From: Candidatus Angelobacter sp.
GTDB lineage: Bacteria > Acidobacteriota > Terriglobia > Terriglobales > Acidobacteriaceae
Length of the DNA: 64,000 bases
Assembly: GCA_036491195.1 (NCBI GenBank)
Contig: DASXCL010000055.1
Location: forward strand, 23,994 to 87,993
Direction: 5' to 3'
The position numbers and the translations under genes were made by a program. Below the pieces are notes generated by a model. It did no database searches. It was not told where the DNA came from and was given only the letters and a program-made list of their open reading frames with translations. Below are positions 20,511 through 54,392 of this stretch, in pieces (position 1 is the stretch's first letter; each line of letters starts with the position of its first letter).

Positions 20511-22928
20511 TTGGTTGCGCCAGGTGGGCAAGTCCACAGCGAACCTTCATCGCACACAAGGGCTCGTCGATCGACTTCCAACCGAGAACATCTCGTCGGT
20601 TCAGATTTGCCGCACAAGTTCGGTTGGCCTCACACACAACCCGAGTTCACAAAATTCTGTGATGCAGTTTCAAGCGCCCACAACCACATAAGGTTTGTTG
20701 AGATCCCATTTCTTAAAGATATGTCGGATGTCGAGCTGGATAATCTCTATGTTGAACCGCGTTTTAGCGCACAAGAGATTCATCCCGACACCCCACTATT
20801 CCGCTGGCCTAGCTGCTTTCAGCCGATTGATGCGATTCGCCAGAGCTCTCGGCTCGTGCTGCTGGGGGACCCGGGGTCCGGGAAATCCACCTTAGTTAGT
20901 TGTCTTGCTTGGCAGTTGTGTCGTCAGCATCCGAATCTGAGCAGCCCATGGGCAAAACACTTCGGCGGCCTGCTGCCACTGCCAATGATTCTAAGAGAGT
21001 TGCATCTGAAAGCGGATCTAACGTGGGAAGGCCTATTAGATGCTTTTCTTGAGCATCGCATTGGACGACTTTTGGGGACGCGAAAACATATCGAGGCTTT
21101 ATTAAAAGAAGGAAGAGCAATCATCTTACTCGACGGATTAGATGAGGTCGGCAACCTCAGCATCCGGCGTAAACTGCGCGACGCAGTGCATGCAGGAATG
21201 AGTGCATATCCGCTAAGTAGCTGGCTTCTGACGTCGCGCGTCGTAGGATACGAGCAAGTCCCTTTTCACATCAAAATCGAAACCGTTTCGGCGCGTTCAA
21301 ACGCTAGCGCTGAAGTTGTAGGACATACAAATCGAACCAAGAAGCTTAGGACATCAATGGCCGGGCTAAATTATATGGCACCGTTCAATGATCAGCAGAT
21401 ACGCACATTTGCCGTTAACTGGTATACGCAACATGAAAAAGACGAGGGAATGGTCCAAACAAAAGCGCAGGATTTTATTAATGCAATACGGGAAAATGAA
21501 GGTACCCAGCGCCTTGGCAGGATTCCTTACTTGCTTACCTTGATGTCGCTAATACATCACAAGAATGCCACGCTGCCACATGGCCGAACTGAGCTCTATG
21601 AGAGAATTGCGACAGCATATCTAGAATCCATCGATCTACGACGGCAGCTGAATCAGCTACCATACTCACTTGCACAAAAGAAACGATGGCTAGCCGCTGT
21701 CGCATATCGTATGCAACTGCGTCGTTCGGTTAAGGGCACGCAATCCCCGCGAGGAGATATTCTGGTCGCCCGTTCCCAAGTTCAGCAGTGGCTTCGCGCT
21801 GCGATGTCTGACTCGGGCGCCAAAGACTCTCGGACTGAATCTGACGTCCTTCTTACCTATTTTGCCCAACGCAGCGGTCTACTTTTGCCGCGAGCAGAGG
21901 GTAAATTCGCTTTCATGCATTTGTCACTTCAGGAGTATTTTGCGGCTTGCTTTTTAGAGCCCCGCCTGACCGCATCAAGATTTGGCTCGGACAATAAAAG
22001 GCTTGAGCCCTCTAACGAACAATTGCGATCATGGGCAAATTCGGAGATATGGACTGAAACCTTCGTCCTCTTGTTTGAGTTGCTTTCCGAAAAGTCTGTG
22101 GACGAGACAGAGGCGCTCCTCGATTATCTTTTCAGCGGACGACTGAAACAAGACAAAACGGGAACAGCCCTAAGTGCAGCAGGTCTATTAGCGGAATTAG
22201 CCACCGATCCGTTCGTTTTGTTGAGCGCCGAAACCCGCAGGCTGATAAGGCAGCAATGTTGGCGCTGGGTTTTTTCGCAGCGTGAAGCATCACCTTCTAG
22301 GCGGTATTATAGCCCTAACTCTAATAAGGTTATTCGCACTTTGTTAAGGGAGCATGATGGGGATCTCCGAAAGAGTTGGTTAGCCTCGTCAATCGGCATG
22401 ACCGAGCTACGACGGTTGAAGCATCTGAACCTTAGCGGATGTTTGACGCTCGCCGACCTTGCTCCTCTTAGTAACCTTAGCAAGCTTAAGTCTCTTAACC
22501 TACAGGGATGTACATCTGTCACGAATCTACGACCCCTAAAGGGGTTAGGCAATCTTGAGGCTCTATTGTTGGATGGTTGCTCGAAAATAAATAATTTAGA
22601 ACCGCTGGGAGAAATGAACAAGTTAGAATTCCTCATTATTGGTGCACCTTGCAACTTTGCTCCCCTTGCTAACATGAAGTCTCTGAAATCCATCCACTTA
22701 CACTTTCAGGATGAAAAAGCTGAAGTTGACTTCTCGCCAATAGCGAACCTACCGCAGCTTACCCTTGTGTGTGTCCCCGGGCCGTTAAGGCTTGCGTCGA
22801 ACGGGCGGGAAATACTCCAGAGTGGGACTTCGCCTGGGGTTAGAAGATTGGTAAAACAGTTAGGACCGGAGGGATTATTGGGCGAACGTTATTACCGGGC
22901 GAAGCGTGCCCAACTACTCAAGCGATAA
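20511..22928 (+). CDS. NACHT-family STAND NTPase with C-terminal leucine-rich repeats (bacterial NLR-like)
   Basis: 805 aa from a TTG start; the frame is actually open from 20343. Walker A LLGDPGSGKST (~20866-20892), Walker B AIILLDGLDEV, LLTSR, FNDQQIRTFAVNWY and IPYLLTLMSLI all fit NACHT. The C-terminus (~22400-22760) has at least 5 tandem ~22-aa LRRs (LKHLNLSGCLTLADLAPLSNLS / KLKSLNLQGCTSVTNLRPLKGLG / NLEALLLDGCSKINNLEPLGEMN / KLEFLIIG...). Confidence 0.85.
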   Translation: MVAPGGQVHSEPSSHTRARRSTSNREHLVGSDLPHKFGWPHTQPEFTKFCDAVSSAHNHIRFVEIPFLKDMSDVELDNLYVEPRFSAQEIHPDTPLFRWPSCFQPIDAIRQSSRLVLLGDPGSGKSTLVSCLAWQLCRQHPNLSSPWAKHFGGLLPLPMILRELHLKADLTWEGLLDAFLEHRIGRLLGTRKHIEALLKEGRAIILLDGLDEVGNLSIRRKLRDAVHAGMSAYPLSSWLLTSRVVGYEQVPFHIKIETVSARSNASAEVVGHTNRTKKLRTSMAGLNYMAPFNDQQIRTFAVNWYTQHEKDEGMVQTKAQDFINAIRENEGTQRLGRIPYLLTLMSLIHHKNATLPHGRTELYERIATAYLESIDLRRQLNQLPYSLAQKKRWLAAVAYRMQLRRSVKGTQSPRGDILVARSQVQQWLRAAMSDSGAKDSRTESDVLLTYFAQRSGLLLPRAEGKFAFMHLSLQEYFAACFLEPRLTASRFGSDNKRLEPSNEQLRSWANSEIWTETFVLLFELLSEKSVDETEALLDYLFSGRLKQDKTGTALSAAGLLAELATDPFVLLSAETRRLIRQQCWRWVFSQREASPSRRYYSPNSNKVIRTLLREHDGDLRKSWLASSIGMTELRRLKHLNLSGCLTLADLAPLSNLSKLKSLNLQGCTSVTNLRPLKGLGNLEALLLDGCSKINNLEPLGEMNKLEFLIIGAPCNFAPLANMKSLKSIHLHFQDEKAEVDFSPIANLPQLTLVCVPGPLRLASNGREILQSGTSPGVRRLVKQLGPEGLLGERYYRAKRAQLLKR

Positions 22929-23052: not shown

Positions 23053-23179
23053 CTGTCCGTCCAGGCGGAACGGCGAACGGTCTTTGAAAACTTAACGGCT
23101 AGCAACTGGCAACTGGCCGAAGCAGGGTATTTTGGTACGTGGTAGTTGGTATTTGGCAAGGATTGCGACCCTCTACCGA

Positions 23180-23261
23180 CTGGGATTGGGACTGGGACTA
23201 GGTCTGGGATTGGGTGACGCCTGGATCACCCAAGCGTCACGCCTGGATCACGCCTGGATCA
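23180..23261. repeat. short tandem repeats at the right edge of the low-GC islet
   Basis: Hexamer-like run ctgggattgggactgggactaggtctgggattggg (23180-23216), followed by three copies of cgcctggatca (23219, 23240, 23251). Confidence 0.7.
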
Positions 23262-23638
23262 CCCTTGGGTTGAATGGAACAAGTGCTTTGTTTGCAACAA
23301 AAGCGCAAAAATGGGGGGTGGGTAAGGAAGATCGGGTGATCCGCAAACCGATTTACTAGAGAGTAAATTTGGCGATCGGGCGAGCGAGAAAAAAGCAACG
23401 CGATTCGAGCTGGAGAAAACGAGAAAAAGGACGGTCGACAGCCTTTTGACTGTCTTATCGAATGGCAGTTTGGCCATTGTTTTCAACAAAAGCCTTACCC
23501 CCGGGTGGGGTAGGCCGAAAATGTTACTAGAAAGGCAACAAATCGATGTTAAAAAGCCGGGGGATTTTGGCCGCGGATTTGCGCGAATCAGCAATTCCCG
23601 GGATCGCCGAAATCGATATCGCCGAGAAACGGAAGTAC

Positions 23639-25202: not shown

Positions 25203-25329
25203 ACATCCATTCTAATCGGGAGCTTGCATAGGGACATGAATCGGAAAGGACGGCCGGCATGTCTTGGCGACGGCGACGCATTGCTCGCAAACAATCACAA
25301 GCGGTATCCTGCAAGTACAGCATTCGCCG

Positions 25330-26070
25330 ATGAAACATGATTCCCGCTTTCGCATAGCCACATACAACACTCACAAATGCCGCGGCATTGATGGGCGCAT
25401 ACGTCCGTCAAGAGTGGCTGAAGTGCTGAACGAACTTGAGGCCGATGTAATAGCTCTGCAGGAAGTTGTGAGCCTGAAGGGCGGACGCAAAGAGCAGAAC
25501 CAGGCGCAATTCCTGGCCGACGCCGCCGGCTATGAATACCGCATCGGTGAGACGCGCAAGCTGCGCGACGCAGTGTACGGCAACGTGGTGCTCAGCCGCT
25601 TTCCTGTTCGCGAAGTTCGCGTATATGACCTGACCGCCTCGCGCCGCGAGGCCCGTGGGTGCATCCGCTGCGACCTGGAAATTGCGCCGGGTAAAATCGT
25701 CCATGTATTCAATGTGCACCTGGGCACCGGATACCTTGAACGCCGCAAGCAGGCCCGGCTTTTGATGAGCCGCGAGGTGCTGCTTTCTCCGCAGCTGAAG
25801 CATCCGCGCCTGATTATCGGCGATTTCAACGAGTGGACGCGCGGCCTGGTCTCGAAAACAATGCAAAGTTCCTTTGAGAGCGTCGATATCCAGCTGCACC
25901 TTAACCGCAAGCGGACCTATCCGGGCGTGCTGCCCATCATGCATCTGGACCACATGTATTTTGACCGCGAGTTGGCGCTGGAAGAATTTTTGCTGCATCG
26001 GAGCCGCATGGCGCTGCTGGCTTCTGACCACCTGCCGCTGCTGGCGGAATTTCGTCTGGGCGGAAGGTAG
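25330..26070 (+). CDS. endonuclease/exonuclease/phosphatase (EEP) family protein
   Basis: I trimmed the start to MKHDSRFRIATYNTHKC. VIALQEV, FNVHLG, IGDFNEW and SDHLPL are classic EEP motifs. Confidence 0.8.
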   Translation: MKHDSRFRIATYNTHKCRGIDGRIRPSRVAEVLNELEADVIALQEVVSLKGGRKEQNQAQFLADAAGYEYRIGETRKLRDAVYGNVVLSRFPVREVRVYDLTASRREARGCIRCDLEIAPGKIVHVFNVHLGTGYLERRKQARLLMSREVLLSPQLKHPRLIIGDFNEWTRGLVSKTMQSSFESVDIQLHLNRKRTYPGVLPIMHLDHMYFDRELALEEFLLHRSRMALLASDHLPLLAEFRLGGR

Positions 26071-26148
26071 GTTTGCCGCTGACTTGCGCAGATTGCCGAG
26101 ATCAGAAACCACCTTACTGCGAAAGGTAATCTTGTTTTTGCCAACACC

Positions 26149-28191
26149 ATGTCGTTGTTCTTTATACGCTCCAACTCAATCTGCGCGGATCTGCGTATAT
26201 CTGCGGCGAAAGGGTTCTATGCTTACAATCTCTCTGTGGCCAAGCTGACTTTTGTCGTAGGAAAGGGTGGAGTAGGGAAGACGACCGTTTCCTGCGCGCT
26301 GGCCTTGCATCTTGCGGCGCGGCATCCCCGGCAATCGACGCTGCTCATGTCCACCGATCCGGCGCATTCGCTGGCCGACATGCTGGAGGTCAAAGACCAT
26401 GCGGGATCGCATCGGCTGGCTGGCGCAAAGGGCAAAGTTTCCGTCTGGCAGATTGATAGCGGCCGTGAATTCAACAAATTTCTTGAGGGCAATCGCGAAG
26501 GGATACTCAAGATTGTCGAAAATGGCACGTTCTTCAACCGTGAAGAAATCGCGCCGCTGCTTGATACCACGCTGCCGGGAATGTCCGAGGTTGCGGGTCT
26601 GCTGGCGCTGCGCGACATGCTGGAGAGCGGTGAGCACGATCACATCGTTGTGGATACCGCGCCGTTCGGCCATACGCTCCGCCTGTTCGAGTTGCCGGGA
26701 CACTTTCAGCGCTTCCTGAATTTTCTGGAAGTCGCTTCCAGCCGCGATAATCTGCTGGCGCAGCGCTTCGGCGGACGCAGGTCCAGTCCAGCACATGGCT
26801 TTCTGGAAAAATGGCAGGCCACGGTAAGGCAGGTGAAAGAAGCCTTCAGCGCGGAGCAGGCAGAAGTTCTGCTGGTGACTTCGCCCGAGACTTTTTCGTT
26901 GAACGAAGCAGTGCGCTGCGTTGATGCGCTGAAAGAATCTACTCCGGAGATGCGCCTGGGCGGAATCGTGCTGAATCGTGTCGTGCTCGATGAGAAAAAC
27001 TGCCCGCGCTGCCAGCAGCGCGCGCTCCAGGGGAAGCGCGCGGTTGAGTTTCTCAAGCGCAAATTTCCGCGAGTACCGCGGCTCATTGGCGTCGACCCCG
27101 GAAATCCGCTGCTGGGCGCTGCGCTGTTGCGCCGCTTTGGCGACACGGTCTTTGCCGGCGGTCGAGCCAACCTGGCGGCGCCCGCGCCCAAGCCGTCAAA
27201 ACAGAAATTGAAGTTCATCCGGACTAAATGGCCTGTGGCCGAAACGCGACTCTCATTTACGCTGGGCAAAGGCGGCGTCGGCAAAACCACGATCACGGCT
27301 GCGCTGGCCTTTCATTCCCGGTCTCTAAACAAAGATGTTCACATAACCGTATGTTCCACTGACCCAGCACCGTCGCTCGATGATATTTTCCAGAAAAAGA
27401 TCGGTGACCAGATGGTGCACGTCCTCAACGACTCCGGCCTTGGCGCGATGGAGATGGATGCGGTCTTTGAGTTTCGCCGCTGGGCGGCGCGCATCAAGCA
27501 ACAATTGTCCGCGGGCGCCAGCATGGAATCAGGCGGCTTGCATGTGGACCTCACGTTTGAGAAAGAAGTCTTCGCCGCATTGATGGACGTCGTGCCTCCC
27601 GGCGTGGACGAAGTTTTTGCCATCTTCCGCATCCTGGACCTGCTGGAAGCCAAACCGGGCAGCGTCTTGATTGATATGGCGCCCACGGGCCACGCACTGG
27701 AACTGTTGCGCATGCCAGAGCGAATTCTCTTGTGGTCACGCCTTTTATTGAAAAGCCTGGCTGCGCACCGTACACTAGCCCTCGCTCAGGATGTTGCGGT
27801 AGAACTGGCCAGACTGGGGCAGAGAATACGCAAACTGCTGGAAATGATGCGTGATCCGAAGCAGAGCAGGGCCTGGGCCGTGATGCTGCCGGAACCAGTG
27901 CCTGACCGGCAAACGCAACGGCTGCTGGCTGCGGTGAACGAAGTCGGCATCGCGGTGGATTCGCTTTTTGTGAACCGCGTGCTGCTGGAACCAGCGCCAT
28001 TGAAGGGAAAAACAGGCTGCATGCGCTGCCGGCGGGCGCAACAGTGGCAGATGGCCACCTTGCAGTTGTTGCGGCAGAAATATGGAGAGCATCGCTTGTA
28101 CCTGGCGCGGGAATTTCCCGCTGAGGTTGCGGGCGCGGCGAAATTGAAGAAATTTACCGGCGAGTTATGGCAAATTCAAACAGGAAAATAG
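26149..28191 (+). CDS. tandem-duplicated Get3/ArsA-family P-loop ATPase heading the gas-vesicle cluster
   Basis: Two homologous halves. Each has a GKGGVGKTT P-loop (aa ~39 and ~373), an STDPAHSL / STDPAPSL motif, a DTAPFGHTLRL / DMAPTGHALELL switch-II signature, and a CxxC (CPRC at 27001-27012; CMRC at 28018-28029) about 240-250 aa after its P-loop. The true start may be GTG 26236 (giving MAKLTFVVGKGG...). The 3' end overlaps the first gvpF/L gene by 25 nt. Confidence 0.85.
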   Translation: MSLFFIRSNSICADLRISAAKGFYAYNLSVAKLTFVVGKGGVGKTTVSCALALHLAARHPRQSTLLMSTDPAHSLADMLEVKDHAGSHRLAGAKGKVSVWQIDSGREFNKFLEGNREGILKIVENGTFFNREEIAPLLDTTLPGMSEVAGLLALRDMLESGEHDHIVVDTAPFGHTLRLFELPGHFQRFLNFLEVASSRDNLLAQRFGGRRSSPAHGFLEKWQATVRQVKEAFSAEQAEVLLVTSPETFSLNEAVRCVDALKESTPEMRLGGIVLNRVVLDEKNCPRCQQRALQGKRAVEFLKRKFPRVPRLIGVDPGNPLLGAALLRRFGDTVFAGGRANLAAPAPKPSKQKLKFIRTKWPVAETRLSFTLGKGGVGKTTITAALAFHSRSLNKDVHITVCSTDPAPSLDDIFQKKIGDQMVHVLNDSGLGAMEMDAVFEFRRWAARIKQQLSAGASMESGGLHVDLTFEKEVFAALMDVVPPGVDEVFAIFRILDLLEAKPGSVLIDMAPTGHALELLRMPERILLWSRLLLKSLAAHRTLALAQDVAVELARLGQRIRKLLEMMRDPKQSRAWAVMLPEPVPDRQTQRLLAAVNEVGIAVDSLFVNRVLLEPAPLKGKTGCMRCRRAQQWQMATLQLLRQKYGEHRLYLAREFPAEVAGAAKLKKFTGELWQIQTGK

Positions 28192-28943
28192 CCGCGAACG
28201 CTCTTTATCTTTACGGGATATCCCTGCGTCCTGAAGGGAAAGCGGGCAAGCCGGCCAAAAACCTGGGGAAGATCGGCAGCGCGGGAATTGACGGCGTGCA
28301 TGCGGTCCGGCCGCTGGGCTGCGGAGAATTTATCTGCTGGGTATGCGAGGTTGACCAGGTCAGCTTCGCGGCGGCCGTTGAAAGCAACATGGAAAATCTA
28401 GAGTGGCTGGCGCTGCATGGAGTACGCCACCAGCAGGTAGTAGGCGAAGTAGCCGAGCAAACCAGCATTGTGCCAGCCCGGTTTGGCACCGTCTTTTCCG
28501 GCGAGCCCGCCCTGGTGCAGGATGTCCAGGGCAGAAAGGCGGCGCTCAAAAAGGTTTTCGCCCGCGTGGCCGGCGGCGATGAATGGGGCGTAAAAGTATT
28601 TGCGGAGCGCCAGGCGCCGGTCGCGCTGCCGGAAGCGAGGTCGGGCAAAGAATATTTGCAGCAGAAAGCCGCGCGTCTGAAGAAACGCCCGGAACGTAAT
28701 GATCGGGAACTACAGGAACTGGCAACGGCGTTGGGAAAGATTGCGACGGATTCAGCGCCCAGCGGCAAGGTCAGCGGAGCGCAACCCAATCTGTTGTGGC
28801 AGGCGACGTTTCTGGTGCCCCGCGCCAAACGCAAGCAGTGGGACCAGGTCCTGAAGAATTTTGTGGAGAGGTGGGACGAGCAGCGGCGCATCGAAGTAAA
28901 TGGGCCGTGGCCGCCGTACTCGTTTGTCTCTGATGCCGACTGA
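28167..28943 (+). CDS. gas vesicle protein GvpF/GvpL family (paralogue 1)
   Basis: 258 aa. ALYLYGI start, HQQVVGEVAEQTSIVPARFGTVF, EWGVKVF, and C-terminal NGPWPPYSFV, all typical of GvpF/L. Confidence 0.85.
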   Translation: MANSNRKIAANALYLYGISLRPEGKAGKPAKNLGKIGSAGIDGVHAVRPLGCGEFICWVCEVDQVSFAAAVESNMENLEWLALHGVRHQQVVGEVAEQTSIVPARFGTVFSGEPALVQDVQGRKAALKKVFARVAGGDEWGVKVFAERQAPVALPEARSGKEYLQQKAARLKKRPERNDRELQELATALGKIATDSAPSGKVSGAQPNLLWQATFLVPRAKRKQWDQVLKNFVERWDEQRRIEVNGPWPPYSFVSDAD

Positions 28944-29157
28944 TTTCGAATCCGTGGAAGTCCTGGGAGGCGGAGAAGATGAAATTTCTCTGCTGGAAAT
29001 CCTGGACCATGTTCTGAATTCCGGGGTAGTGATCCACGGTTCGCTGGTGATCTCACTGGCCGGCGTGGATCTGGTGTATCTGGGGCTGAACGTGGTACTT
29101 ACCTCTGTGGAGACGGCGCTGAGCAATCTGCAGATCGAAGAGAAGCGGAAGAAGTGA
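28933..29157 (+). CDS. GvpA-family minor gas vesicle protein (GvpS/GvpM-like)
   Basis: 74 aa from the internal ATG 28933 (11-nt overlap with the upstream gene). ISLLEILDHVLNSGVVIHGSLVISLAGVDLVYLGLNVVLTSVETA matches the Gas_vesicle (GvpA/J/M/S) core pattern. Confidence 0.75.
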   Translation: MPTDFESVEVLGGGEDEISLLEILDHVLNSGVVIHGSLVISLAGVDLVYLGLNVVLTSVETALSNLQIEEKRKK

Positions 29158-29828
29158 GCCGCATTCTGGCATATTGCGCCTTTCGGCATGCTGCGGAACT
29201 CACTATGCCTTTGTTCGGCGTCAACGCCGCATCCGTGCAGGCGGCATCCTCAGGCCATCTGAGCCTGCTGTGGTCTGAGGTAGAGTGGCCGTTCGATCCG
29301 GAGCGAATGCAAAAAAGCGCTGTGGAGTTTCACGGGGTTGTGCACCAGGTCTTCCGCCAGGCTGCGGTCGTCCCTTTCCGGCTGCTTTCGGTATTCGACG
29401 ATCTGCAGGCATTGAAGGCATTTTTCGAGAAGAACCAGGCGCGTTTCCTGGAGGATCTGGAACGGTTAAACGCGGTTGTGCAGATGGAGTGTGTTGTGTA
29501 TCCGCTCCCAACTCGAGTGCAACCCGCCAAGAGCTCTGGCAGAGAATACCTCGAGCAGAAGGCTGTGGCGTTGCGCTCAGCAGAAGGTTTTGCGCAAGCC
29601 GTGCGAGCCGCGTTGACTCATTTGAGCAGGGAAGTGCGGGTGCGTGAAGCAAAGAATGGAACGCGTATCTTCGTATTGATTGACCGAGGCCGCGAGAGCG
29701 ATTTTCGCCAGGCGGTAAGCGCCGTGGCAATACCCGAACATCTATCGCGGCGCGTCAGCGGCCCCTGGCCCGCGGCGGAATTTCTGAGTGAGCAGGTCAA
29801 AATGCCGCAGACTGCCGGTGAAAAATGA
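29154..29828 (+). CDS. gas vesicle protein GvpF/GvpL family (paralogue 2)
   Basis: 224 aa with a GTG start in a GTGA overlap with the upstream stop. AVEFHGVVHQVFRQAAVVPFRLLSVF..., ...ECVVY..., EYLEQKA, and C-terminal SGPWPAAEF. Confidence 0.7.
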   Translation: MSRILAYCAFRHAAELTMPLFGVNAASVQAASSGHLSLLWSEVEWPFDPERMQKSAVEFHGVVHQVFRQAAVVPFRLLSVFDDLQALKAFFEKNQARFLEDLERLNAVVQMECVVYPLPTRVQPAKSSGREYLEQKAVALRSAEGFAQAVRAALTHLSREVRVREAKNGTRIFVLIDRGRESDFRQAVSAVAIPEHLSRRVSGPWPAAEFLSEQVKMPQTAGEK

Positions 29829-30184
29829 CGGACTTGCGGAAAATTACGCCCCAGGAGATCGCCGCGGCTGTCTCAGAGATGAACCGCGAACTCAAGGCCG
29901 TGGGCGAAGGCGCCATCGACCGGATTGACTGCTCGCCGGAGAACATTGAGCAGGGACTTGCGAGGCTGGTGCTCAGCCTGGTTGAGTTGCTGCGCCGTCT
30001 GCTGGAGCGGCAGGCGATCCGAAGGATGGAGGGCGGTTCTCTCGGGAATGCCAAAGTTGAGGAGATGGGCCAGGCTCTGATGCGTCTTGAAGCCAAGGTG
30101 AATGAACTGGCTGCGGCTTTTGGCCTGAAGCCGGAAGACCTCAACCTGGAACTTGGTCCATTGGGGAACCTGCTGGACAAGTAA
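29825..30184 (+). CDS. gvpK: gas vesicle protein GvpK
   Basis: 119 aa with an ATGA overlap with the upstream gene. GLARLVLSLVELLRRLLERQAIRRMEGGSL ... EDLNLELGPLGNLL matches the conserved GvpK core. Confidence 0.85.
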   Translation: MTDLRKITPQEIAAAVSEMNRELKAVGEGAIDRIDCSPENIEQGLARLVLSLVELLRRLLERQAIRRMEGGSLGNAKVEEMGQALMRLEAKVNELAAAFGLKPEDLNLELGPLGNLLDK

Positions 30185-30329
30185 TTCTCAACCGGTTTCC
30201 AGCCCAGGGGCAAGAACGATTTTTTCAGGCGAAGCGGCAACCTTTTTAAAACAGGTACGCATCATAGACGTACACGCTGGCTCCTCCCCCTTCCGGATTT
30301 TCATAAGCCAGCGAAAAAGTGGGCAAAAG

Positions 30330-30358
30330 TTGACAGTTTCAGATGGGCTGGTTAGGAT
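30330..30358 (+). promoter_or_regulatory. candidate sigma70-type internal promoter for gvpJ-gvpA
   Basis: TTGACA (30330-30335), 17-nt spacer, TAGGAT (30353-30358). It is located in the only sizeable gap (242 nt) of the cluster, about 70 nt upstream of the gvpJ ATG. Confidence 0.45.
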
Positions 30359-30426
30359 GCGATGACACGGGTCGTTTGCGGATATCCTAATCCCATGCGA
30401 TCTCCTCTGAATTTTCCCGAGATATT

Positions 30427-30747
30427 ATGCAAAGAGTTCCTTCGGTTTCCGGAACAGCCAACCTGCTCGATATTCTTGATCGAGTCCTCGATAAGGGACT
30501 CGTGATCGCGGGCGACATACGCGTTTCGCTGGCGAACGTGGAGTTGCTGACGATCCGCATACGCTTGCTTATCTGTTCTGTCGATAAGGCTGAAGCCATA
30601 GGTCTCAATTGGTGGAAGTACGACCCCAATCTCACCGCGCCAGCGTCTGAAAAAGTGGTACGGCGAGCCCAGTTGCCGGGGGCGCCGCCAGGGGCCAGTG
30701 TGCCGAGCCGCAGCAAGGCCGCTGTTCGTGCAAAACGCGTGAAGTGA
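30427..30747 (+). CDS. gvpJ: gas vesicle protein GvpJ
   Basis: 106 aa. [53 protein letters not shown] is a GvpJ-type Gas_vesicle domain with a C-terminal extension. Confidence 0.85.
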
Positions 30748-30778
30748 GCCGATCGATATTAATGAAGGAGGCCCTCGA

Positions 30779-31081
30779 ATGGCCGTTGAAAGAGTTTCCG
30801 GCGGATCAAGTTTAATCGATGTCCTGGATCGAGTACTCGACAAAGGCATCGTTATTGATGCCTGGGTCCGCATCTCGCTGGTCGGTATTGACTTGATCAC
30901 GGTTGAAGCGCGCGTTGTCGTCGCGTCGATTGATACCTATCTCAAGTATGCCGACGCTGTCGGTCTTACTGGCTTGGTCTCCCGCCCGACCCTGGGTGAA
31001 GGCGGCGCCGAAGGTGAAGAACAAGGAGAACTGGGTGAGGTCAGGCCACGTACACCACGTGCACCCCGCCGCCGGCGGTAA
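30779..31081 (+). CDS. gvpA: major gas vesicle structural protein GvpA, with charged C-terminal extension
   Basis: 100 aa. [55 protein letters not shown] is a near-consensus GvpA core, followed by about 35 extra residues ([28 protein letters not shown]). Confidence 0.9.
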
Positions 31082-31102
31082 GGCCTGGTCTTGGGGGCAC
31101 GC

Positions 31103-33220
31103 ATGGCTACGGCCCAAATCCGCTTTAACTCCGCGCGCATGAACGGGCGGCGGACAACGCAGCCCCGACGTCCTGCGGTGCTTCGCCTGTTTCAGGCTGA
31201 GCGCTCGGAGGAGATATTCCCGCTTTTGCTGGAAGAGATTGTCGCTCTCGGCCATCCCCGCGCCCTGGTAGTCGACGTGAACCTGGAGAGCGGCGAGGTG
31301 TCGCCGGCCGCGGCGCTGAAGTGGCCTCGAGCGCAGATGGATAAGTTCACCAGCGCGCTCTGGATGCAGGAGCACCCTCTTGTCAGTATCCTTCACGCCG
31401 CGCGGCCTGAAGTTCTCGGCAAGAGCACTCTGCATAACCGGCCAATCTACATTCATCCCATCCTTTACTCCAACCGCAATCTTTGCTGGGAAGCTGACCG
31501 TATCCGCACCTCCAGTTGCCTGGCGGTCCAGAATTTCCACCGGGAAAAGCGCGTCCGGCTGGAAGACCAGGTTTGCTCCACCTGTGAGATGCGGGCTTAC
31601 GCGGCCGCGGTCATCGTGGAATTGCCCAAGGGCTATACCGAACAGCGGGTCGCCGAACTGGGCGAGTTGATGGATCTCGCCAACCGGTATCTCTCGCGCT
31701 TATTCAAGGTTGAGCACTATTACAACCGCATGCGGGATATGGAAATCACCATCGCGCAAATGGGTACCGTGATGCAGAGCATGGCCGATCCGGTCATTCT
31801 CACTGACACCCAGCATCGCGTGATCATGCAGAATAAAGCGGCAGAGCGCTTCTTCCGCGTCCCCGACGAAATGACCGAAGGTCTGGTGCGCGCGGTTGAG
31901 TTCAATAATCTCCTTTTCTCCGCGGCACTCTCTTCCATGCTGGTTTCCGGCAGCGATTCCCACCGCGACCTCACGCTGGTGGACGCCATTGAAGGCGAAG
32001 AAATGCTTTTTGAAGCCGTCTCCGCCCCCACCTACGGGCCTGACGGCATCCAGCTGGGAACGGTCACCGTGATGCGTGACGTTACCGATCTCCGTCGCGC
32101 CGACCAGGAATTGCGCCTCAATTACGAAAGGCTGAGCGAAGCTGAAGAAGTAGTCCGCCAGGACCGCGACCGCCTCAACGTGATCATCGAAAACGTCGGC
32201 GATCCTATTGTGGTTTGTGACGGCAAGGCCAAGATCGTTCTGGTGGACCCGCTGGCCCAGGAATTATTCGGGGCCGAAGCCGACGTGGTGCGCGATACCA
32301 TCCAGTTCCAGAACCAAACCAAGCTCACTGCATTTATTGATGCTTTTACGGCCTCCTTTGCCGATCGCGAAACGGCGCCCTTGCGGTTGTTCAATCCCGC
32401 GCTGCGGCAGGAGATTGAATATGACGCGCGTTCCGGCAAAATCTTTGGTGAGCGCGGCCAGGTTTCCTATACCGTGACCGTGCTGCGCGACCTTACTGCC
32501 TTGCGCAGGGTGGAGCAGCTCAAGGTCGAGCGGCGCATGCTGGAAATCGAAAAATTCGCCGCCACTGGCAGATTGGCCGCCACCATTGCCCATGAGGTCA
32601 ATAACCCCATGGAGGCCATCAAGAACGCCATTTATCTGCTGGCCAGCGCGATCCCGGAAAATGCGTCGCCGGTCTACAACATTTTGAAGTCGGAAACCGA
32701 GCGGGTGGCGCGTATTGTCCGCCAGATGCTGGGACTTTACCGCAACACCGAACAGGTCAAGCCGGTCAACGTTAATACGATCATTGAGGACACGCTGCTG
32801 CTGCTCAACCGGCAGCTCCAGCGGGCGAACGTCGAAGTGCAGACCCAGTTGGAAGTGTTGCCCGATGCCGTAATTGCCGCCGACCAGATCCGCCAGGTGC
32901 TTTCCAACCTGGTGATTAATGCCCGCGACGCCATGCCCAACGGCGGCAAGCTCCGCATCCGCAGCCGCCACATTCCCGGATATGACGATCTGCATGGCTG
33001 GGTGCGGATTCTGATCGCCGATACCGGCTCCGGAATTCCGCCGGAAATGATCCGTACCATTTTTGAGCCCTTCGTCACCACCAAGGGTGAAAGAGGCACC
33101 GGCCTGGGCCTGTGGATCGTCAAGGGAATTATCCAGAACCATGCCGGCAAGCTCTCAGTCAAGAGCCGGGTGGGCCGGGGCACGACTTTCAAGATTGATT
33201 TGCCCGTCGTAAAATTGTGA
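31103..33220 (+). CDS. cytoplasmic sensor histidine kinase (N-terminal Cys-containing sensory domain, 2 PAS-like domains, HisKA, HATPase_c)
   Basis: ATG at 31103, 22 nt after the gvpA stop. No TM helices. PAS-like blocks (ADPVILTDTQHRVIMQNKAAERFF; GDPIVVCDGKAKIVLVDPLAQELF). H-box ATIAHEVNNPMEAI. N/G boxes NLVINARDAM, DTGSGIP, GTGLGLWIV. Confidence 0.85.
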   Translation: MATAQIRFNSARMNGRRTTQPRRPAVLRLFQAERSEEIFPLLLEEIVALGHPRALVVDVNLESGEVSPAAALKWPRAQMDKFTSALWMQEHPLVSILHAARPEVLGKSTLHNRPIYIHPILYSNRNLCWEADRIRTSSCLAVQNFHREKRVRLEDQVCSTCEMRAYAAAVIVELPKGYTEQRVAELGELMDLANRYLSRLFKVEHYYNRMRDMEITIAQMGTVMQSMADPVILTDTQHRVIMQNKAAERFFRVPDEMTEGLVRAVEFNNLLFSAALSSMLVSGSDSHRDLTLVDAIEGEEMLFEAVSAPTYGPDGIQLGTVTVMRDVTDLRRADQELRLNYERLSEAEEVVRQDRDRLNVIIENVGDPIVVCDGKAKIVLVDPLAQELFGAEADVVRDTIQFQNQTKLTAFIDAFTASFADRETAPLRLFNPALRQEIEYDARSGKIFGERGQVSYTVTVLRDLTALRRVEQLKVERRMLEIEKFAATGRLAATIAHEVNNPMEAIKNAIYLLASAIPENASPVYNILKSETERVARIVRQMLGLYRNTEQVKPVNVNTIIEDTLLLLNRQLQRANVEVQTQLEVLPDAVIAADQIRQVLSNLVINARDAMPNGGKLRIRSRHIPGYDDLHGWVRILIADTGSGIPPEMIRTIFEPFVTTKGERGTGLGLWIVKGIIQNHAGKLSVKSRVGRGTTFKIDLPVVKL

Positions 33221-33657
33221 GTGCCGACCGCAAATACCGCGTGCTGGTAGTGGACGACGAAGCTGCCGTCCTGCTTACTTACCGCCTCATCCTTGAACGG
33301 CAGGGCTATGAGGTGGTGGCATGCGGCACTTCGGTGCAGGCCATTGCGGCTGTGCAGAAAGAGCGGTTTGATGTTGTTCTATGCGACTATTCTCTGGAAG
33401 AGCAGCATACGGGGTTCGAAGTAATCTCAGCGGCTAGAAAGCTGGATCACGAGGTGCCGGCGGCCCTGCTTACGGGATACGCTACCAAGGAAACGGCCGA
33501 TGAAGCGGCCAGCCGGGGCATCGGCGTGATGTTCAAGCCGATCGAGATTGAAGAATTTTTGGCCACCACCTCCACTATGGTGAGGAGAGACAATGAGCCC
33601 AAGCAAGAAGGCGGGGAAAAAGACAACCACGCTCCGCAAAACGAACACCAAGGCTGA
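33217..33657 (+). CDS. stand-alone response regulator receiver protein
   Basis: 146 aa with a GTG start in a GTGA overlap with the kinase stop. VLVVDDE, VLCDYSL (acceptor Asp context) and MFKP are present. There is no output domain. Confidence 0.85.
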   Translation: MSADRKYRVLVVDDEAAVLLTYRLILERQGYEVVACGTSVQAIAAVQKERFDVVLCDYSLEEQHTGFEVISAARKLDHEVPAALLTGYATKETADEAASRGIGVMFKPIEIEEFLATTSTMVRRDNEPKQEGGEKDNHAPQNEHQG

Positions 33658-34495
33658 ACCGGCGACAGCGTTGCTGGACCTTGTGCCTCCGCCATCCGTC
33701 CAGAAGGCCGAGTCGCCCAGGAGCGGGCAGCAGCAGGAAGGCCGCTACGTCTACGGTGTGATCGAATCGCGCGCCCCGGTCGGCTTTGGACGCAGCAGTA
33801 TCGGCGGCGTCAATGAAGCCGTATACACCGTGCACTATGGCGATATCGCGGCCGTGGTCAGCCGCACTCCTGTTTTTATCTTTGATCCCACGCGCGACAA
33901 CGCCCTGGCCCATGAGCACGTCATCGAATCGGTGATGAAAAATTACACCATCATTCCCATGAGCTTTGGCACGGTTTTCCGCACGGACGACGATATCCGC
34001 GAAGTGCTCAAAAGCATTTACTCGTCGCTCAAAGACGTGCTCAAGCAGATGACCGGCAAGCTGGAGTTTGGCCTGAAAGTCACCTGGGACCGCGACCGCA
34101 TTATCGAAGAGTTACAGCGGGAGCATGATGAGATCCACCGCTTCCACCAGGAACTCACCCGCAAGCACTTGCAGTCGACGTATTTCGCCCGCATGCAGCT
34201 GGGCCGCATGATCGATAAAGCCCTGGCAGAACTTGCAGCCAATTACGTCCGTGAAATTTACGACGGCCTGCGCGCCGTCTGCGTGGCCTCCCGTGACAAC
34301 AAGCCCATCGGCGACAAGATGATCATGAACGCCGCCTTTTTGATTCAGAAAGCGCGCGAAGCCGAGTTTGACGCCGCCGTGAACCACGTCGCCCAGAAGT
34401 TCGGCGACCGGCTGAATTTCAAATATACCGGCCCATGGCCGCCGTACAATTTCGTGAACATCCGCCTGAAACTGGAGCGCGGCGGGCAGGGGTAA
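33593..34495 (+). CDS. gas vesicle protein GvpF/GvpL family (paralogue 3)
   Basis: 300 aa. RYVYGVIES, VHYGDIAAVVS, HEHVIESVMKNYTIIPMSFGTVF, LEFGLKVTWD, and C-terminal YTGPWPPYNFV. ATG 33593 overlaps the receiver gene by 65 nt; in-frame TTG 33671 or GTG 33683 would avoid the overlap. Confidence 0.85.
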   Translation: MSPSKKAGKKTTTLRKTNTKAEPATALLDLVPPPSVQKAESPRSGQQQEGRYVYGVIESRAPVGFGRSSIGGVNEAVYTVHYGDIAAVVSRTPVFIFDPTRDNALAHEHVIESVMKNYTIIPMSFGTVFRTDDDIREVLKSIYSSLKDVLKQMTGKLEFGLKVTWDRDRIIEELQREHDEIHRFHQELTRKHLQSTYFARMQLGRMIDKALAELAANYVREIYDGLRAVCVASRDNKPIGDKMIMNAAFLIQKAREAEFDAAVNHVAQKFGDRLNFKYTGPWPPYNFVNIRLKLERGGQG

Positions 34496-34720
34496 GAACT
34501 TACCACTGAGGGCACTGATCGGAGAAGGCAGAAAAAGCTTACTGCGGATTTTCGGATGATCGCGGATCAGAAGTTTTGCCGCGAATGAATGCAAAACGCG
34601 CGAATAAAGGAAAGCCTAAGCACCGCAGGCGCGAAACAAAGGTAGCCCAGCACGAGCGCTGGGTAAGCGAGATATGATTGGAAAGCCCCACAGGGCGACA
34701 CCACCTCCGGAGAAATATAA

Positions 34721-35062
34721 ATGCTTCTAATCGATGACCTGCTTTTCGCTCCCTTCTCCGGCTGGAATTTCATCATGCGCACCCTGCTCAAAGTAGCTGA
34801 AGAGCAGTGGACGGACGACGCCCCTCTCAAAGAAAAACTTCTCCATCTTCAGGTTGAACTTGAAGACGGTTCTATCACAGAAGAGCAATATCTTGAAGCC
34901 GAGGCTGCCGTCCTGCGTGAGATCCGCGAGGTGCAGCGCCGCAAGATCGAACTTGCCGGCGGCGATCCCGACCAGTTTGAAGGCGGAATCTCCAGTTCCT
35001 CCGTCCAGGAAGGGTCCAGCGCTTCCATCACCTGGGACCCCAACGAAAGCAACGAAGAATAA
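34721..35062 (+). CDS. gvpG: gas vesicle protein GvpG
   Basis: 113 aa. MLLIDDLLFAPFSG...LLKVAEEQ...LLHLQVELEDGSITEEQYLEAEAAVLREIREV matches the conserved GvpG pattern. Confidence 0.8.
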   Translation: MLLIDDLLFAPFSGWNFIMRTLLKVAEEQWTDDAPLKEKLLHLQVELEDGSITEEQYLEAEAAVLREIREVQRRKIELAGGDPDQFEGGISSSSVQEGSSASITWDPNESNEE

Positions 35063-35170: not shown

Positions 35171-35202
35171 AAAAAGAAGGCCGGCATTTCTGCCAGCCTT
35201 CT
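35171..35202 (-). terminator. terminator between convergent gvpG and OMP genes
   Basis: Hairpin aaggccggca-tttc-tgccagcctt (one mismatch). On the minus strand it is followed by ctttttgtg, 18 nt after the OMP stop. Confidence 0.55.
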
Positions 35203-35219
35203 TGGTTGATGTTGCTGAG

Positions 35220-51935: not shown

Positions 51936-54392
51936 TTAGTTGCTGTAGAGCAGGACACCATCGCTCTTTTCTGCGCCATCGCCAACCGGGCGATAGAACA
52001 GTTGATCGCCTTCCAGGTAAACCTCAATGAAGGCCGGACGCGTGGTGATGGTTCCCTGGATCAGCGCCTCAGATAGCGGGTCTTCAATATACCGCTGCAA
52101 GGCCCTGCGCAACGGACGCGCGCCGTAACTGCGGTCCACCAGCGTCTTATCCAGTATCCACCGCTTCGCTTCCTCGGTCACCGTGATCGTGATGTGGCGC
52201 TGCGCCAGGTTGCCGTTGAGCTGCTGCACCAGCAGTTCAAGGATCTGGATCAGGTCAGCATCGGTCAGGGCCTGGAAAATAATTACTTCATCCAGACGGT
52301 TCAGGAACTCAGGATTGAAAGTTTTCTTCACTTCCTGTCTTACCAGCTCCTCAACTTTATCGTGGACCGTTTCTTCCTTGTCGAGCGAGAAGCCGAGCCC
52401 TTTGCGCTTCATCAGGTGCCGCGCGCCGATGTTGGAGGTCATCACGATGATTACGTTCTTGAAATCCACCGTGTTGCCCAATCCGTCAGTGAGCTGTCCA
52501 TCTTCAAGGACTTGCAGCAGGATGTTGAAAACATCCGGATGCGCCTTCTCGATTTCGTCCAACAGCACAACAGAGTAAGGTGACCGCTTCACGCGTTCGG
52601 TCAACTGGCCGCCCTCTTCGTATCCTACGTATCCTGGAGGCGAGCCGATCAGCTTGCTGACTGAATGCTTCTCCATGAACTCGGACATATCGAAGCGGAT
52701 CAGAGATTTATCGCTGCCAAAGAGGAAGTGCGCCAGTGTGCGCGCGACTTCGGTTTTGCCCACGCCGGTCGGACCCAGGAACAGGAACGAACCGATGGGG
52801 CGGTGTGGAGATTTCAAGCCTGCACGTGAGCGGCGGATCGAACGGGCCAGGGCGCTGATGGCCTTGTCCTGTGAGATCACGCGCTTGTGCAGCTCTTCTT
52901 CCACACGCAGCAGTTTCTGTGTCTCTTCTTCCTTGATGGAGGTCACGGGCACGCCGGTCCAGCGGCTGACCACTTCCTCAATGTCCTCGCGGCCCACAAC
53001 TCCGGTGGAAGACTCATCCAGATGATATTTCTCGCGCAGGGCGCGCAGGTTCTCGCGCTCCTTGCGCTCTTCGTCGGAGTAGAAGCGCGCCTTTTCGAAC
53101 TCATGGTTCGCAATCGCGTTCTCCATCCGGTGAACAATAAACTTGATCCGCTTCTGGACTTCTGTGATCTCTTCTGGCAGCGATGTCTGGCGCAGTTTCA
53201 CGCGCGCGCCGGCTTCGTCCAGCAGGTCGATTGCCTTGTCCGGCAGGAAGCGGTCTGGAATGTACCGGTTTGAGTGGTACACCGCGAACTGGATCGCTTC
53301 GTCCGTATAGCTTACGGCGTGGAACTTCTCATAACGTTCTTTGATGCCGTAGATGATCTTGACCGCCTGATCTTCTCCTGGTGGCGGAACTTTCACGGCC
53401 TGGAATCGCCGTTCCAGCGAGCGGTCCTTCTCAATCGACTTGCGATATTCGCCCGGTGTGGTTGCGCCGATGCACTGAATTTCACCGCGTGAAAGCGCGG
53501 GCTTCAGAATGTTTGCGGCATCCAGCGAGCCTTCCGCCGAGCCGGCCCCGACCAGCGTGTGCAACTCATCGATAAAGATGATGCAGTTCTGGCTCTCCAT
53601 CAATTCCTTCATGATGGTCTTCAGGCGCTCTTCAAACTGTCCGCGATATTTGGTTCCGGCAACGATCAATGAAAGATCGAGCCCGAGGATTCTCTTGTCT
53701 GCCAGGAATGACGGCACGTCGCCATCGGCGATACGCTGGGCCAGACCTTCAACGATTGCGGTTTTGCCTACGCCTGGTTCGCCAATCAACACCGGATTGT
53801 TCTTGGTGCGGCGGCACAGAATCTGGATCACGCGCTCAACTTCGCCTTCACGGCCGACAAGCGGATCTAGCTGGCCATCCATGGCGGCCTGGGTCAGGTC
53901 GCGTGAGAATTCCGCCAGCAGAGAAGATTCGCGGTTAGAGCCGCGCTGGGGTTGGGCCTTTTCCTGCGTGCTCCGGGCCAGTTCTTCACGGATGGCGCTC
54001 AGGCGCAGTCCACGCTCGTGCAGAATTTCAGCGGCAAAGCACTTTTCTTCACGCAGCAATCCCAATAGCAAGTGCTCCGTGCCAATGTGCTTGTGGCTGA
54101 GGCGTTCCGCCTCTTCCGCCGCGTATGCCAATACCCGTTTGCATTCATTGCTTAAAGGCAGGTCCACGGAAGTGGAAACTTTCTCCCGAATCGTGGTGTG
54201 CCCTTCAATCTGCTTGCGGATAGATTCGACTGACGCGTGAGAGCGCAGAAAGCGGTTGGTCAACGCTTTGTCTTCGCGCAGCAAGCCCAGCAGCAGGTGC
54301 TCCGTCTCAATGTACGGAGAGCCGAACTGGCTGGCTTCGTATCTTGCAAAGAAGATTACGCGCCTGGCTTTCTCTGTATACCGCTCGAACAT
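51936..54392 (-). CDS. clpC: ATP-dependent Clp protease ATP-binding subunit ClpC
   Basis: 818 aa. Duplicated Clp_N ([20 protein letters not shown]...; ...[11 protein letters not shown]), two AAA+ modules (GEPGVGKTA; GPTGVGKTE), and a UVR-like middle segment ([16 protein letters not shown]). Confidence 0.92.

Follow-up and report, generated by a model that had tools for sequence, protein, structure and literature searches.

A Compact Gas-Vesicle Gene Cluster with a Tandem Get3/ArsA-Family ATPase and No Neighboring gvpN or gvpC in Candidatus Angelobacter (Acidobacteriota)

Introduction

Can gas vesicles be made from a gene cluster that has neither gvpN nor gvpC, and what, if anything, does the work of the AAA+ protein GvpN in such a system? 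This question is raised by a 64-kb stretch of DNA (the whole of which is referred to here as the window) from a soil metagenome-assembled genome (MAG) of Candidatus Angelobacter (Acidobacteriota, class Terriglobia), in which a gas-vesicle (gvp) gene cluster lies at 26.1-35.1 kb. Gas-vesicle assembly is poorly understood, the role of GvpN included, and a conserved cluster without GvpN and GvpC provides a natural test bed for it. Briefly, the cluster comprises eight gvp genes together with the genes for a tandem ATPase of the Get3/ArsA family, a soluble histidine kinase, and a response regulator. On balance, it is probable that this is a functional, self-contained gas-vesicle locus whose ATPase would act as a chaperone of Gvp subunits, covering wholly or in part for GvpN, with the kinase sensing an intracellular cue.

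Gene Content and Order

According to the coordinates of the open reading frames (ORFs) and their Pfam matches, the eleven genes follow one another on the + strand in the order ATPase-F-S-F-K-J-A-kinase-regulator-F-G. The original prediction had described eleven co-directional genes, the first five of which were joined by overlaps of 25, 11, 4, and 4 nucleotides (nt); all of them were found on the + strand and in place, with the exception of the start of the ATPase gene (see below), and the overlaps follow from the ORF coordinates. Its Gvp assignments were checked with Pfam models run over the longest ORF at each position of the window (approximately 48 ORFs of at least 113 amino acids (aa)), and each of the eight received a strong match. 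Eight Gvp matches of such strength within 9 kb exclude chance. The set consists of GvpA, two further PF00741 paralogues, three PF06386 genes, GvpK (PF05121), and GvpG (PF05120). In Serratia, gvpA1, gvpA2, gvpA3, gvpF1, gvpF2, gvpF3, gvpG, and gvpK have each been reported to be needed for the formation of any vesicle (PMC4982088), and the eight Gvp gene types found here equal this set (A1, A2, A3, F1, F2, F3, G, and K), which speaks for a functional locus.

The annotated gvp cluster of the gas-vacuolate Octadecabacter arcticus served as the reference for Gvp subtypes. The first Gvp gene (28167..28943, +) encodes a GvpL-like member of the GvpL/F family (paralogue 1; Pfam GvpL_GvpF 6e-39, with a weak NCBIfam match to GvpL), overlaps the ATPase gene by 25 nt, and shares synteny with the Octadecabacter F-S-F-K module. 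It is followed by a gene for a small, hydrophobic GvpA-family protein of the GvpS/GvpM type (28933..29157, +, in an ORF that opens at 28900; 74 aa; Pfam Gas_vesicle 8e-15), by the second GvpF/L paralogue (29154..29828, +; Pfam GvpL_GvpF 8e-25), and by GvpK (29825..30184, +; Pfam GvpK 1.4e-33), so that the whole stretch from 28167 to 30184 has the same arrangement as the Octadecabacter module. The GvpS/M protein has the highest hydrophobicity in the cluster, and it and GvpA are the two most hydrophobic products. The second GvpF/L paralogue is the fastest evolver among the eleven genes (51-74% identity to relatives, dN/dS 0.08-0.21), and GvpK shows 82-98% conservation among the loci.

The next two genes encode GvpJ (30427..30747, +; Pfam Gas_vesicle 1.9e-17) and the shell protein GvpA (30779..31081, +; Pfam Gas_vesicle 4.4e-17; NCBIfam NF006874, 114.5 against a cut-off of 100). 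The subtype calls made earlier for the three GvpA-family genes are upheld by identities to the Octadecabacter proteins of 72% for GvpA (over 64 aa), 65% for GvpJ, and 56% for the product of the gene at 28933 compared with GvpS. When GvpA is compared with the shell proteins solved by cryo-electron microscopy, the two known proteins are matched over their full span (residues 1-68 align with 8gbs and residues 1-64 with 7r1c), and residues 1-72 are identical in 17 of 19 full-length copies from related loci, the other two (L013 and L032) carrying one or two substitutions. Beyond this core, GvpA has a charged, lineage-specific tail of approximately 30 aa (residues 68-100, 30980-31081), which is acidic and Glu/Gly-rich at first, then Arg/Pro-rich, and ends in PRRRR in most loci and in PRRRQ or PRQRR in two. 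No such tail occurs in the GvpA proteins of Anabaena, B. megaterium, and Octadecabacter used for comparison. The total length of GvpA varies from 93 to 108 aa, and the bipartite pattern of the tail is kept in all full-length copies.

Downstream of the kinase and regulator genes lie canonical gvpF (33593..34495, +; Pfam GvpL_GvpF 7e-76; 39% identity to Octadecabacter GvpF, E = 2e-51) and gvpG (34721..35062, +; Pfam GvpG 3e-13). The former overlaps the regulator gene by 65 nt, has AGGAG 5 nt ahead of its ATG, and encodes a protein whose residues 81-240 are approximately 99% conserved across loci, while gvpG closes the cluster in all complete loci.

Conservation across Related Loci

A scan of one genome per GTDB species yielded 30 related loci, each taken with approximately 10 kb on either side of the cluster, and 29 of them are labeled Angelobacter, Terriglobia, Terriglobales, or Acidobacteriaceae. 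Every locus of sufficient length has the eleven genes in the same order, down to an ATPase identity of 56%, and this order recurs in at least 17 species-level relatives, with no gvpN, gvpO, or hsp20 within that distance. At least three kinds of genomic surroundings were seen for the cluster: within the genus its neighbors are conserved, and in L027, L028, and L029, where they differ, the eleven genes are still together. Comparison with seven relatives gave ratios of nonsynonymous to synonymous substitution (dN/dS) of 0.01-0.26 for all eleven genes, with dS of approximately 0.5-2. Purifying selection on every gene, together with the conserved order, indicates a functional unit under strong constraint rather than a relic.

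The acidobacterial origin proposed for the window is confirmed by the ATPase, which matches a protein of a Candidatus Angelobacter MAG at 100% identity; the exact protein is also present on a metagenome contig of the Joint Genome Institute. A second homologue search, started from the most divergent locus (L029) in order to reach outgroups and see whether they carry gvpN, led to the same acidobacterial clade. Several records carry the labels of other phyla. A Limnocylindrales MAG locus (L026, a 6 kb contig) has near-identical cluster proteins, as do records labeled Verrucomicrobiae (P0250), Alphaproteobacteria (P0211), and Actinomycetota (P0222), and all of these are MAG contigs of 2-60 kb. The labels most likely reflect mis-binning rather than horizontal transfer.

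Absence of GvpN, GvpC, GvpO, and Hsp20 from the Window

It had been predicted that gvpN, gvpC, and gvpO are missing from the window, and Pfam scans, tblastn searches (for GvpN and GvpO), and a tandem-repeat scan were all negative. No match to GvpN, GvpC, GvpO, or Hsp20/GvpH was obtained in the Pfam scans of the longest ORFs, nor was an NCBIfam match to GvpN found in the window. With the Octadecabacter GvpN, GvpO, and Hsp20 proteins as queries, tblastn returned no match in the window and none in the 30 related loci. For GvpC, the window contains neither a Gas_vesicle_C match nor a 99-nt tandem repeat, a result that leaves room for a divergent, non-repeat GvpC elsewhere. The sole AAA+ protein in the window is a ClpB/ClpC-type chaperone (51936-54392). 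Within the cluster every ORF has been assigned, and the spacers (approximately 160, 243, and 226 nt) are too short for another protein. GvpN is said to be conserved within all gvp clusters (PMC9501494), and the window departs from this rule.

The Tandem ATPase

The first gene of the cluster (26236..28191, +, in an ORF that opens at 26149) encodes a tandem, pseudo-dimeric ATPase of the Get3/ArsA family with a length of 651 aa (two Pfam ArsA_ATPase matches, 4.6e-90). The presence of an ATPase gene had been predicted correctly, though without an explanation of what the ATPase is. Its start is probably GTG 26236 rather than ATG 26149, because the 651-aa form is the one called by NCBI (P0001), the region upstream is variable, and residues 1-29 of the long (680-aa) ORF are poorly conserved. 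The DNA upstream of 26236 looks non-coding and is variable and repeat-rich in relatives. In two MAG loci (L023, 10001-11987; L028, 10001-11957) the ATPase match is split between two frames, either by a frameshift or by an assembly error.

Get3 dimers clamp zinc through a pair of CxxC motifs, and their ATP-bound closing forms a hydrophobic groove that shields tail-anchor helices. The ATPase passes the model TIGR00345 GET3_arsA_TRC40 (306 against 135 bits) and fails the ArsA equivalog model TIGR04291 (149.7 against 650 bits). Each half carries a CxxC motif (C285/C288 and C624/C627) that aligns with the CxxC of Get3 7ru9 and is invariant in 28-29 loci, and by analogy with Get3 this pair would be expected to bind zinc. 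The protein has two P-loops (GKGGVGKTT at residues 38 and 373) and two switch motifs of the DTAP.GH type (DTAPFGHT at 169 and DMAPTGHA at 509), and these, like the two CxxC motifs, do not vary across 27-29 loci. The best PDB match by sequence is a tandem Get3-type protein, Chlamydomonas ARSA1 (5zme). The AlphaFold model of the ATPase has a predicted template-modeling score (pTM) of 0.82, and in Foldseek it matches closed ArsA, and each of its halves matches closed Get3 with target-normalized TM-scores of 0.75-0.86.

In the alignment with E. coli ArsA (1f48), the ATPase has no cysteine at the positions of the three that bind metalloid (Cys113, Cys172, and Cys422). Judged by its motifs, the ATPase is not an arsenic pump, because it is without the three arsenite-binding cysteines and fails the cut-off of the ArsA equivalog. 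In addition, the ORFs scanned over the window include no ars gene (arsB, acr3, arsD, or arsR). A ParA/MinD-like positioning role was also considered and is less likely, since the protein passes the Get3/ArsA model with helical subdomains that ParA/MinD lack.

The Kinase-Regulator Pair

The eighth gene (31091..33220, +, with a probable start at ATG 31103) encodes a soluble histidine kinase in which a GAF-like N-terminal domain is followed by the Pfam domains PAS-PAS-HisKA-HATPase and which has no transmembrane segment. Its N-terminal part (31091-31780) matches no Pfam model. Four cysteines in this part (C132, C143, C162, and C165 of the 709-aa ORF, in the spacing C-x10-C-x18-C-x2-C) are invariant in 18 loci, and the GAF-like domain may be a metal, Fe-S, or redox sensor. 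The AlphaFold model obtained for the sensor domain is of moderate quality (predicted local distance difference test (pLDDT) 66), and the four-cysteine loop is disordered in it. With 78-94% identity to relatives, the kinase exceeds the ATPase in conservation.

The ninth gene (33217..33657, +) encodes a single-domain CheY-like response regulator, for which Response_reg is the only Pfam match. It has no DNA-binding output, so that it would act by protein contact or via another factor. The kinase gene always stands directly before it, the pair occurs in every complete locus, and both proteins are integral parts of the cluster. It was reported that the regulators encoded in the Serratia cluster are thought to relay low oxygen (PMC11778176).

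Transcription Signals

Two transcription units are likely, one running from the ATPase gene through gvpL/F, gvpS, and gvpF/L to gvpK, and the other comprising gvpJ, gvpA, the kinase and regulator genes, and gvpF, then gvpG after a 226-nt spacer. The first unit is translationally coupled and may be leaderless. Ahead of it, a probable -10 box (TACAAT, 26224..26229, +) lies 6 nt from GTG 26236 and would, by its sequence, act as a promoter; it is found in 20 of 26 loci, in some of them within a different upstream context, while its place is taken by TAGAAT in L029 and by TAAAAC in five loci. The lack of a Shine-Dalgarno sequence between TACAAT and GTG 26236 suggests that the first transcript is leaderless or nearly so. 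Good Shine-Dalgarno sequences precede gvpF (33593) and gvpG.

In the gvpK-gvpJ spacer, upstream of gvpJ-gvpA, a motif scan revealed a sigma-70-type promoter sequence (TTGACA-17-TAGGAT, 30330..30358, +). Both hexamers are invariant in 12 loci and the remainder of the spacer is variable, which provides good comparative evidence that the element serves as the promoter for gvpJ-gvpA and the downstream genes. At 30230-30270 of the same spacer, approximately -80 to -110 and thus upstream of the promoter, CAGCCAACC and GCATC are also conserved across loci; these motifs could be a regulator-binding site. A 13-bp GC-rich hairpin (35174..35203), located between gvpG and a convergent gene for a TonB-type receptor, is probably the terminator that ends the cluster.

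Comparison with Known Gas-Vesicle Systems

It was noted in 2010 that ArsA homologues occur inside gvp clusters of four phyla, and the authors proposed that the ArsA-homologue ATPase energizes a step of vesicle biogenesis (PMC2963123). Their list includes an acidobacterium, Acidobacteria bacterium Ellin345 (Aba1), with arsA, two L/F genes, J, K, and M, and with no N listed (PMC2963123, Castillo and Saier 2010). Ellin345 thus resembles Angelobacter in belonging to the same phylum and in having a two-domain ArsA homologue of approximately 634 aa beside gvp L/F (two copies), J, K, and M; it differs in that it is known from a SEED context table only. The 2010 account does not describe GvpA, GvpG, a third F/L gene, a kinase-regulator pair, CxxC motifs, promoters, or a GvpA tail. 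The Angelobacter cluster is therefore a further, better-resolved example of the variant glimpsed at that time.

The cluster of Serratia sp. ATCC 39006 (the gvpA1-gvpY operon plus the gvrA-gvrC operon) shares with that of Angelobacter the same eight gene types and the presence of in-cluster regulators. In contrast to it, Serratia has gvpC, gvpN, gvpV, gvpH, gvpW, gvpX, gvpY, gvpZ, and gvrA and no Get3/ArsA-type ATPase, and its gvpN and gvpV mutants form bicones only.

With regard to actinomycetes, a recent review counts gvpA, C, and FGKLN among the conserved genes of every cluster, although its own table gives gvpOAFG-JLSK for Streptomyces coelicolor (PMC9501494). The earlier statement that actinomycete soil clusters lack some of the genes of the classical clusters is accordingly correct, as the S. 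coelicolor cluster has neither N nor C (PMC9501494, PMC4982088). Clusters of this type also belong to a soil bacterium without gvpN and gvpC, and the L-S-K module is common to both; on the other hand, they have gvpO and a strongly divergent GvpA, and they have neither a Get3/ArsA ATPase nor a two-component pair. Residues 1-68 of Angelobacter GvpA are close to the cyanobacterial protein, unlike the GvpA of S. coelicolor. Membership of the Angelobacter cluster in the actinomycete type was rejected, since gvpO was not found and the Get3/ArsA ATPase is present.

The best match among plasmids is pOA238_160 of Octadecabacter arcticus 238 (GvpA 72, GvpJ 65, GvpS 56, GvpK 41, and GvpF 39% identity), which has the F-S-F-K module in the same order. 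It differs by the presence of gvpN, gvpO, hsp20, and a fourth F/L gene and by the absence of a Get3/ArsA ATPase, kinase, or regulator. The Get3/TRC40 proteins, including Chlamydomonas ARSA1 (5zme), share with the Angelobacter ATPase the subfamily model, the tandem or pseudo-dimeric build, one CxxC per half, and the closed-state fold. In the present case, however, no Get1/2-type receptor or tail-anchored client is evident, and the proposed clients are predicted to be soluble but highly hydrophobic shell subunits.

In combining the lack of GvpN, GvpC, and GvpO with a Get3-type ATPase and an embedded kinase-regulator pair, the Angelobacter cluster differs from every experimentally studied one, and nothing relevant on a link between Get3 and gas vesicles, or on gas vesicles in Koribacter, was found in the searchable literature. 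As for the novelty claimed at the outset, the compact layout without N, C, and O stands, but it is less new than was implied, given Ellin345 in 2010 (PMC2963123) and the actinomycetes.

Proposed Mechanism and Alternative Explanations

Few soluble proteins are as hydrophobic and as prone to aggregation as those of the GvpA family. In the mechanism that we favor, the two halves of the ATPase would close, driven by ATP and held by the zinc CxxC pair as in Get3, and the closed ATPase would shield the very hydrophobic GvpA-family subunits and deliver them. It would thereby supply, wholly or partly, the function in assembly or enlargement that the AAA+ protein GvpN has elsewhere. The charged tail of GvpA might compensate for the missing GvpC by stabilizing or spacing, which is a speculation. 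The kinase would sense a cue inside the cell (perhaps redox state, oxygen, or a metal) via its cysteine-rich GAF domain, and its output would pass through the CheY-like regulator by protein-protein contact. A bolder version, according to which, in this abundant soil lineage, a zinc-clamped tandem ATPase has replaced GvpN as the energy-using assembly chaperone that brings subunits to the growing shell, the kinase is a redox or oxygen switch in water-logged soil, and the vesicles are the first known in Acidobacteria, is tentative and rather doubtful.

Several points weigh against the favored mechanism. First, gvpN is listed beside an arsA homologue in Bacteroidetes/Chlorobi, and the clusters of Geobacter and cyanobacteria are said to resemble these (PMC2963123); this co-occurrence means that the two ATPases are not generally interchangeable and that a substitution in Angelobacter can only be inferred. 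Second, gvpN mutants of Serratia and Halobacterium still form small bicones (PMC4982088), so that the loss of GvpN may need no compensation. Third, the gvpN negative spans 64 kb of this genome and approximately 10 kb of flanking DNA in the relatives. With respect to the proteins, Foldseek matches the ATPase to both ArsA and Get3, which makes the fold non-discriminating and the motifs more informative, and the helical subdomains, which would form the client groove, have the lowest pLDDT in the model (54-70). For the N-terminal 220 residues of the kinase, the assignment to GAF is weak (TM-scores of 0.45-0.6 between the AlphaFold model and Foldseek matches), and the signal (redox, oxygen, or metal), suggested with low confidence by analogy with Serratia, is a guess. 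Moreover, no report of gas vesicles in Acidobacteria was found in the searchable literature.

The first and third of these points lend themselves to the explanation that survives best among the rivals, while still being unlikely, namely that the cluster is conventional, with gvpN and perhaps a GvpC-like gene elsewhere in the genome and the ATPase merely auxiliary. The well-studied systems, however, have gvpN inside the cluster (PMC9501494), none of the 30 related loci has gvpN nearby, the cluster moves between contexts as the same eleven-gene unit, and the 2010 list for Ellin345 is also without N.

A somewhat less likely possibility is that the locus makes small or few vesicles of the bicone type, which are used in soil pores for purposes other than flotation (for example, altering the volume or surface of the cell, surviving stress, or spreading in water films), and that the ATPase is not a replacement for GvpN. 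The bicones of the gvpN mutants fit this explanation, as do the soil habitat and the non-buoyancy roles that have been proposed for actinomycetes and spore-formers. By contrast, the ATPase is under strong purifying selection and is translationally coupled to the gvp genes, which argues for a role in assembly.

That the cluster is cryptic, or a decaying relic that makes nothing, is very improbable. The N-less cluster of S. coelicolor was long held to be cryptic (PMC4982088), and the split ATPase matches in L023 and L028 could be taken as signs of decay; yet these two are MAGs in which the splits may be assembly errors, the low dN/dS extends to all eleven genes in the seven comparisons, the order is identical in all complete loci, and the catalytic motifs and promoter hexamers are invariant. 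Finally, the idea that the ATPase is a normal subunit of an arsenite pump and only happens to adjoin gvp genes, although it agrees with the annotation "arsenite-transporting ATPase" in the sources and with the overall ArsA fold, is barely credible in view of the missing metalloid-binding cysteines, the score of 150 against 650 bits for the ArsA equivalog, the lack of arsB, acr3, arsD, and arsR matches in the window, the 25-nt overlap with gvpL/F, and the same position in every locus.

Implications

If the bolder version is true, gas-vesicle growth would have a second ATPase-based solution, one that evolved independently. Being a compact system of eleven genes in approximately 9 kb, the cluster could serve to study the part that an ATPase plays in the growth of vesicles, and it could show whether a Get3-type chaperone handles GvpA. 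With it, the range of gas vesicles would also come to include a dominant soil phylum, and one would have to ask what use buoyancy organelles have in soil pores. Compact gvp clusters are, in addition, of practical interest as acoustic reporter genes. The value of the finding is tempered by the fact that the association of arsA with gvp genes in an acidobacterium was noted in 2010 and that all functional steps are inferred.

Intergenic Repeats and Neighboring Genes

Directly upstream of the cluster and co-directional with it lies an Exo_endo_phos gene (25264-26070, +). It shows 76-94% identity in 20 of the 30 loci, which is above that of the other neighbors, and the rest have too little upstream DNA or another context. 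This gene was considered as a twelfth member of the cluster and rejected, as it is absent beside the cluster in L027, L028, and L029; it is probably only a neighbor.

The spacer between the Exo_endo_phos and ATPase genes contains an inverted repeat (26072..26210, with arms at 26072-26095 and 26177-26210). Each arm has approximately three heptamer sub-repeats with a 10-nt period (ATCTGCG), and the arms are approximately 95 nt apart. The same layout is found in L004, L005, L008, L010-L013, and L021, with other units in both arms, such as ATCAGTG/CACTGAT in L021 and TTGCGTCC/GGACGCAA in L010-L013. The repeat could be an element similar to repetitive extragenic palindromic sequences (REP/REPIN) or to miniature inverted-repeat transposable elements (MITE), which it looks like, or else a structured regulatory site close upstream of the first promoter of the cluster. 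A second intergenic element (23178-23342) is built alike, with three copies of GACTGGGATTGG (12-nt), three to four copies of ACGCCTGGATC (11-nt), and an inverted partner approximately 90 nt away, and the two elements suggest a genome-wide family. Scans of the window for Rfam families and tRNA genes were negative.

Farther away, the window encodes a 1531-aa RHS-repeat protein (2802-7397, -), which adjoins a tandem array of approximately eight ACCGCGATCGGG-like units with a 12-nt period (2133-2253), and a NACHT/LRR protein of the STAND type (20511-22928, +). These two genes may be related to toxins or defense and are unrelated to the gvp cluster.

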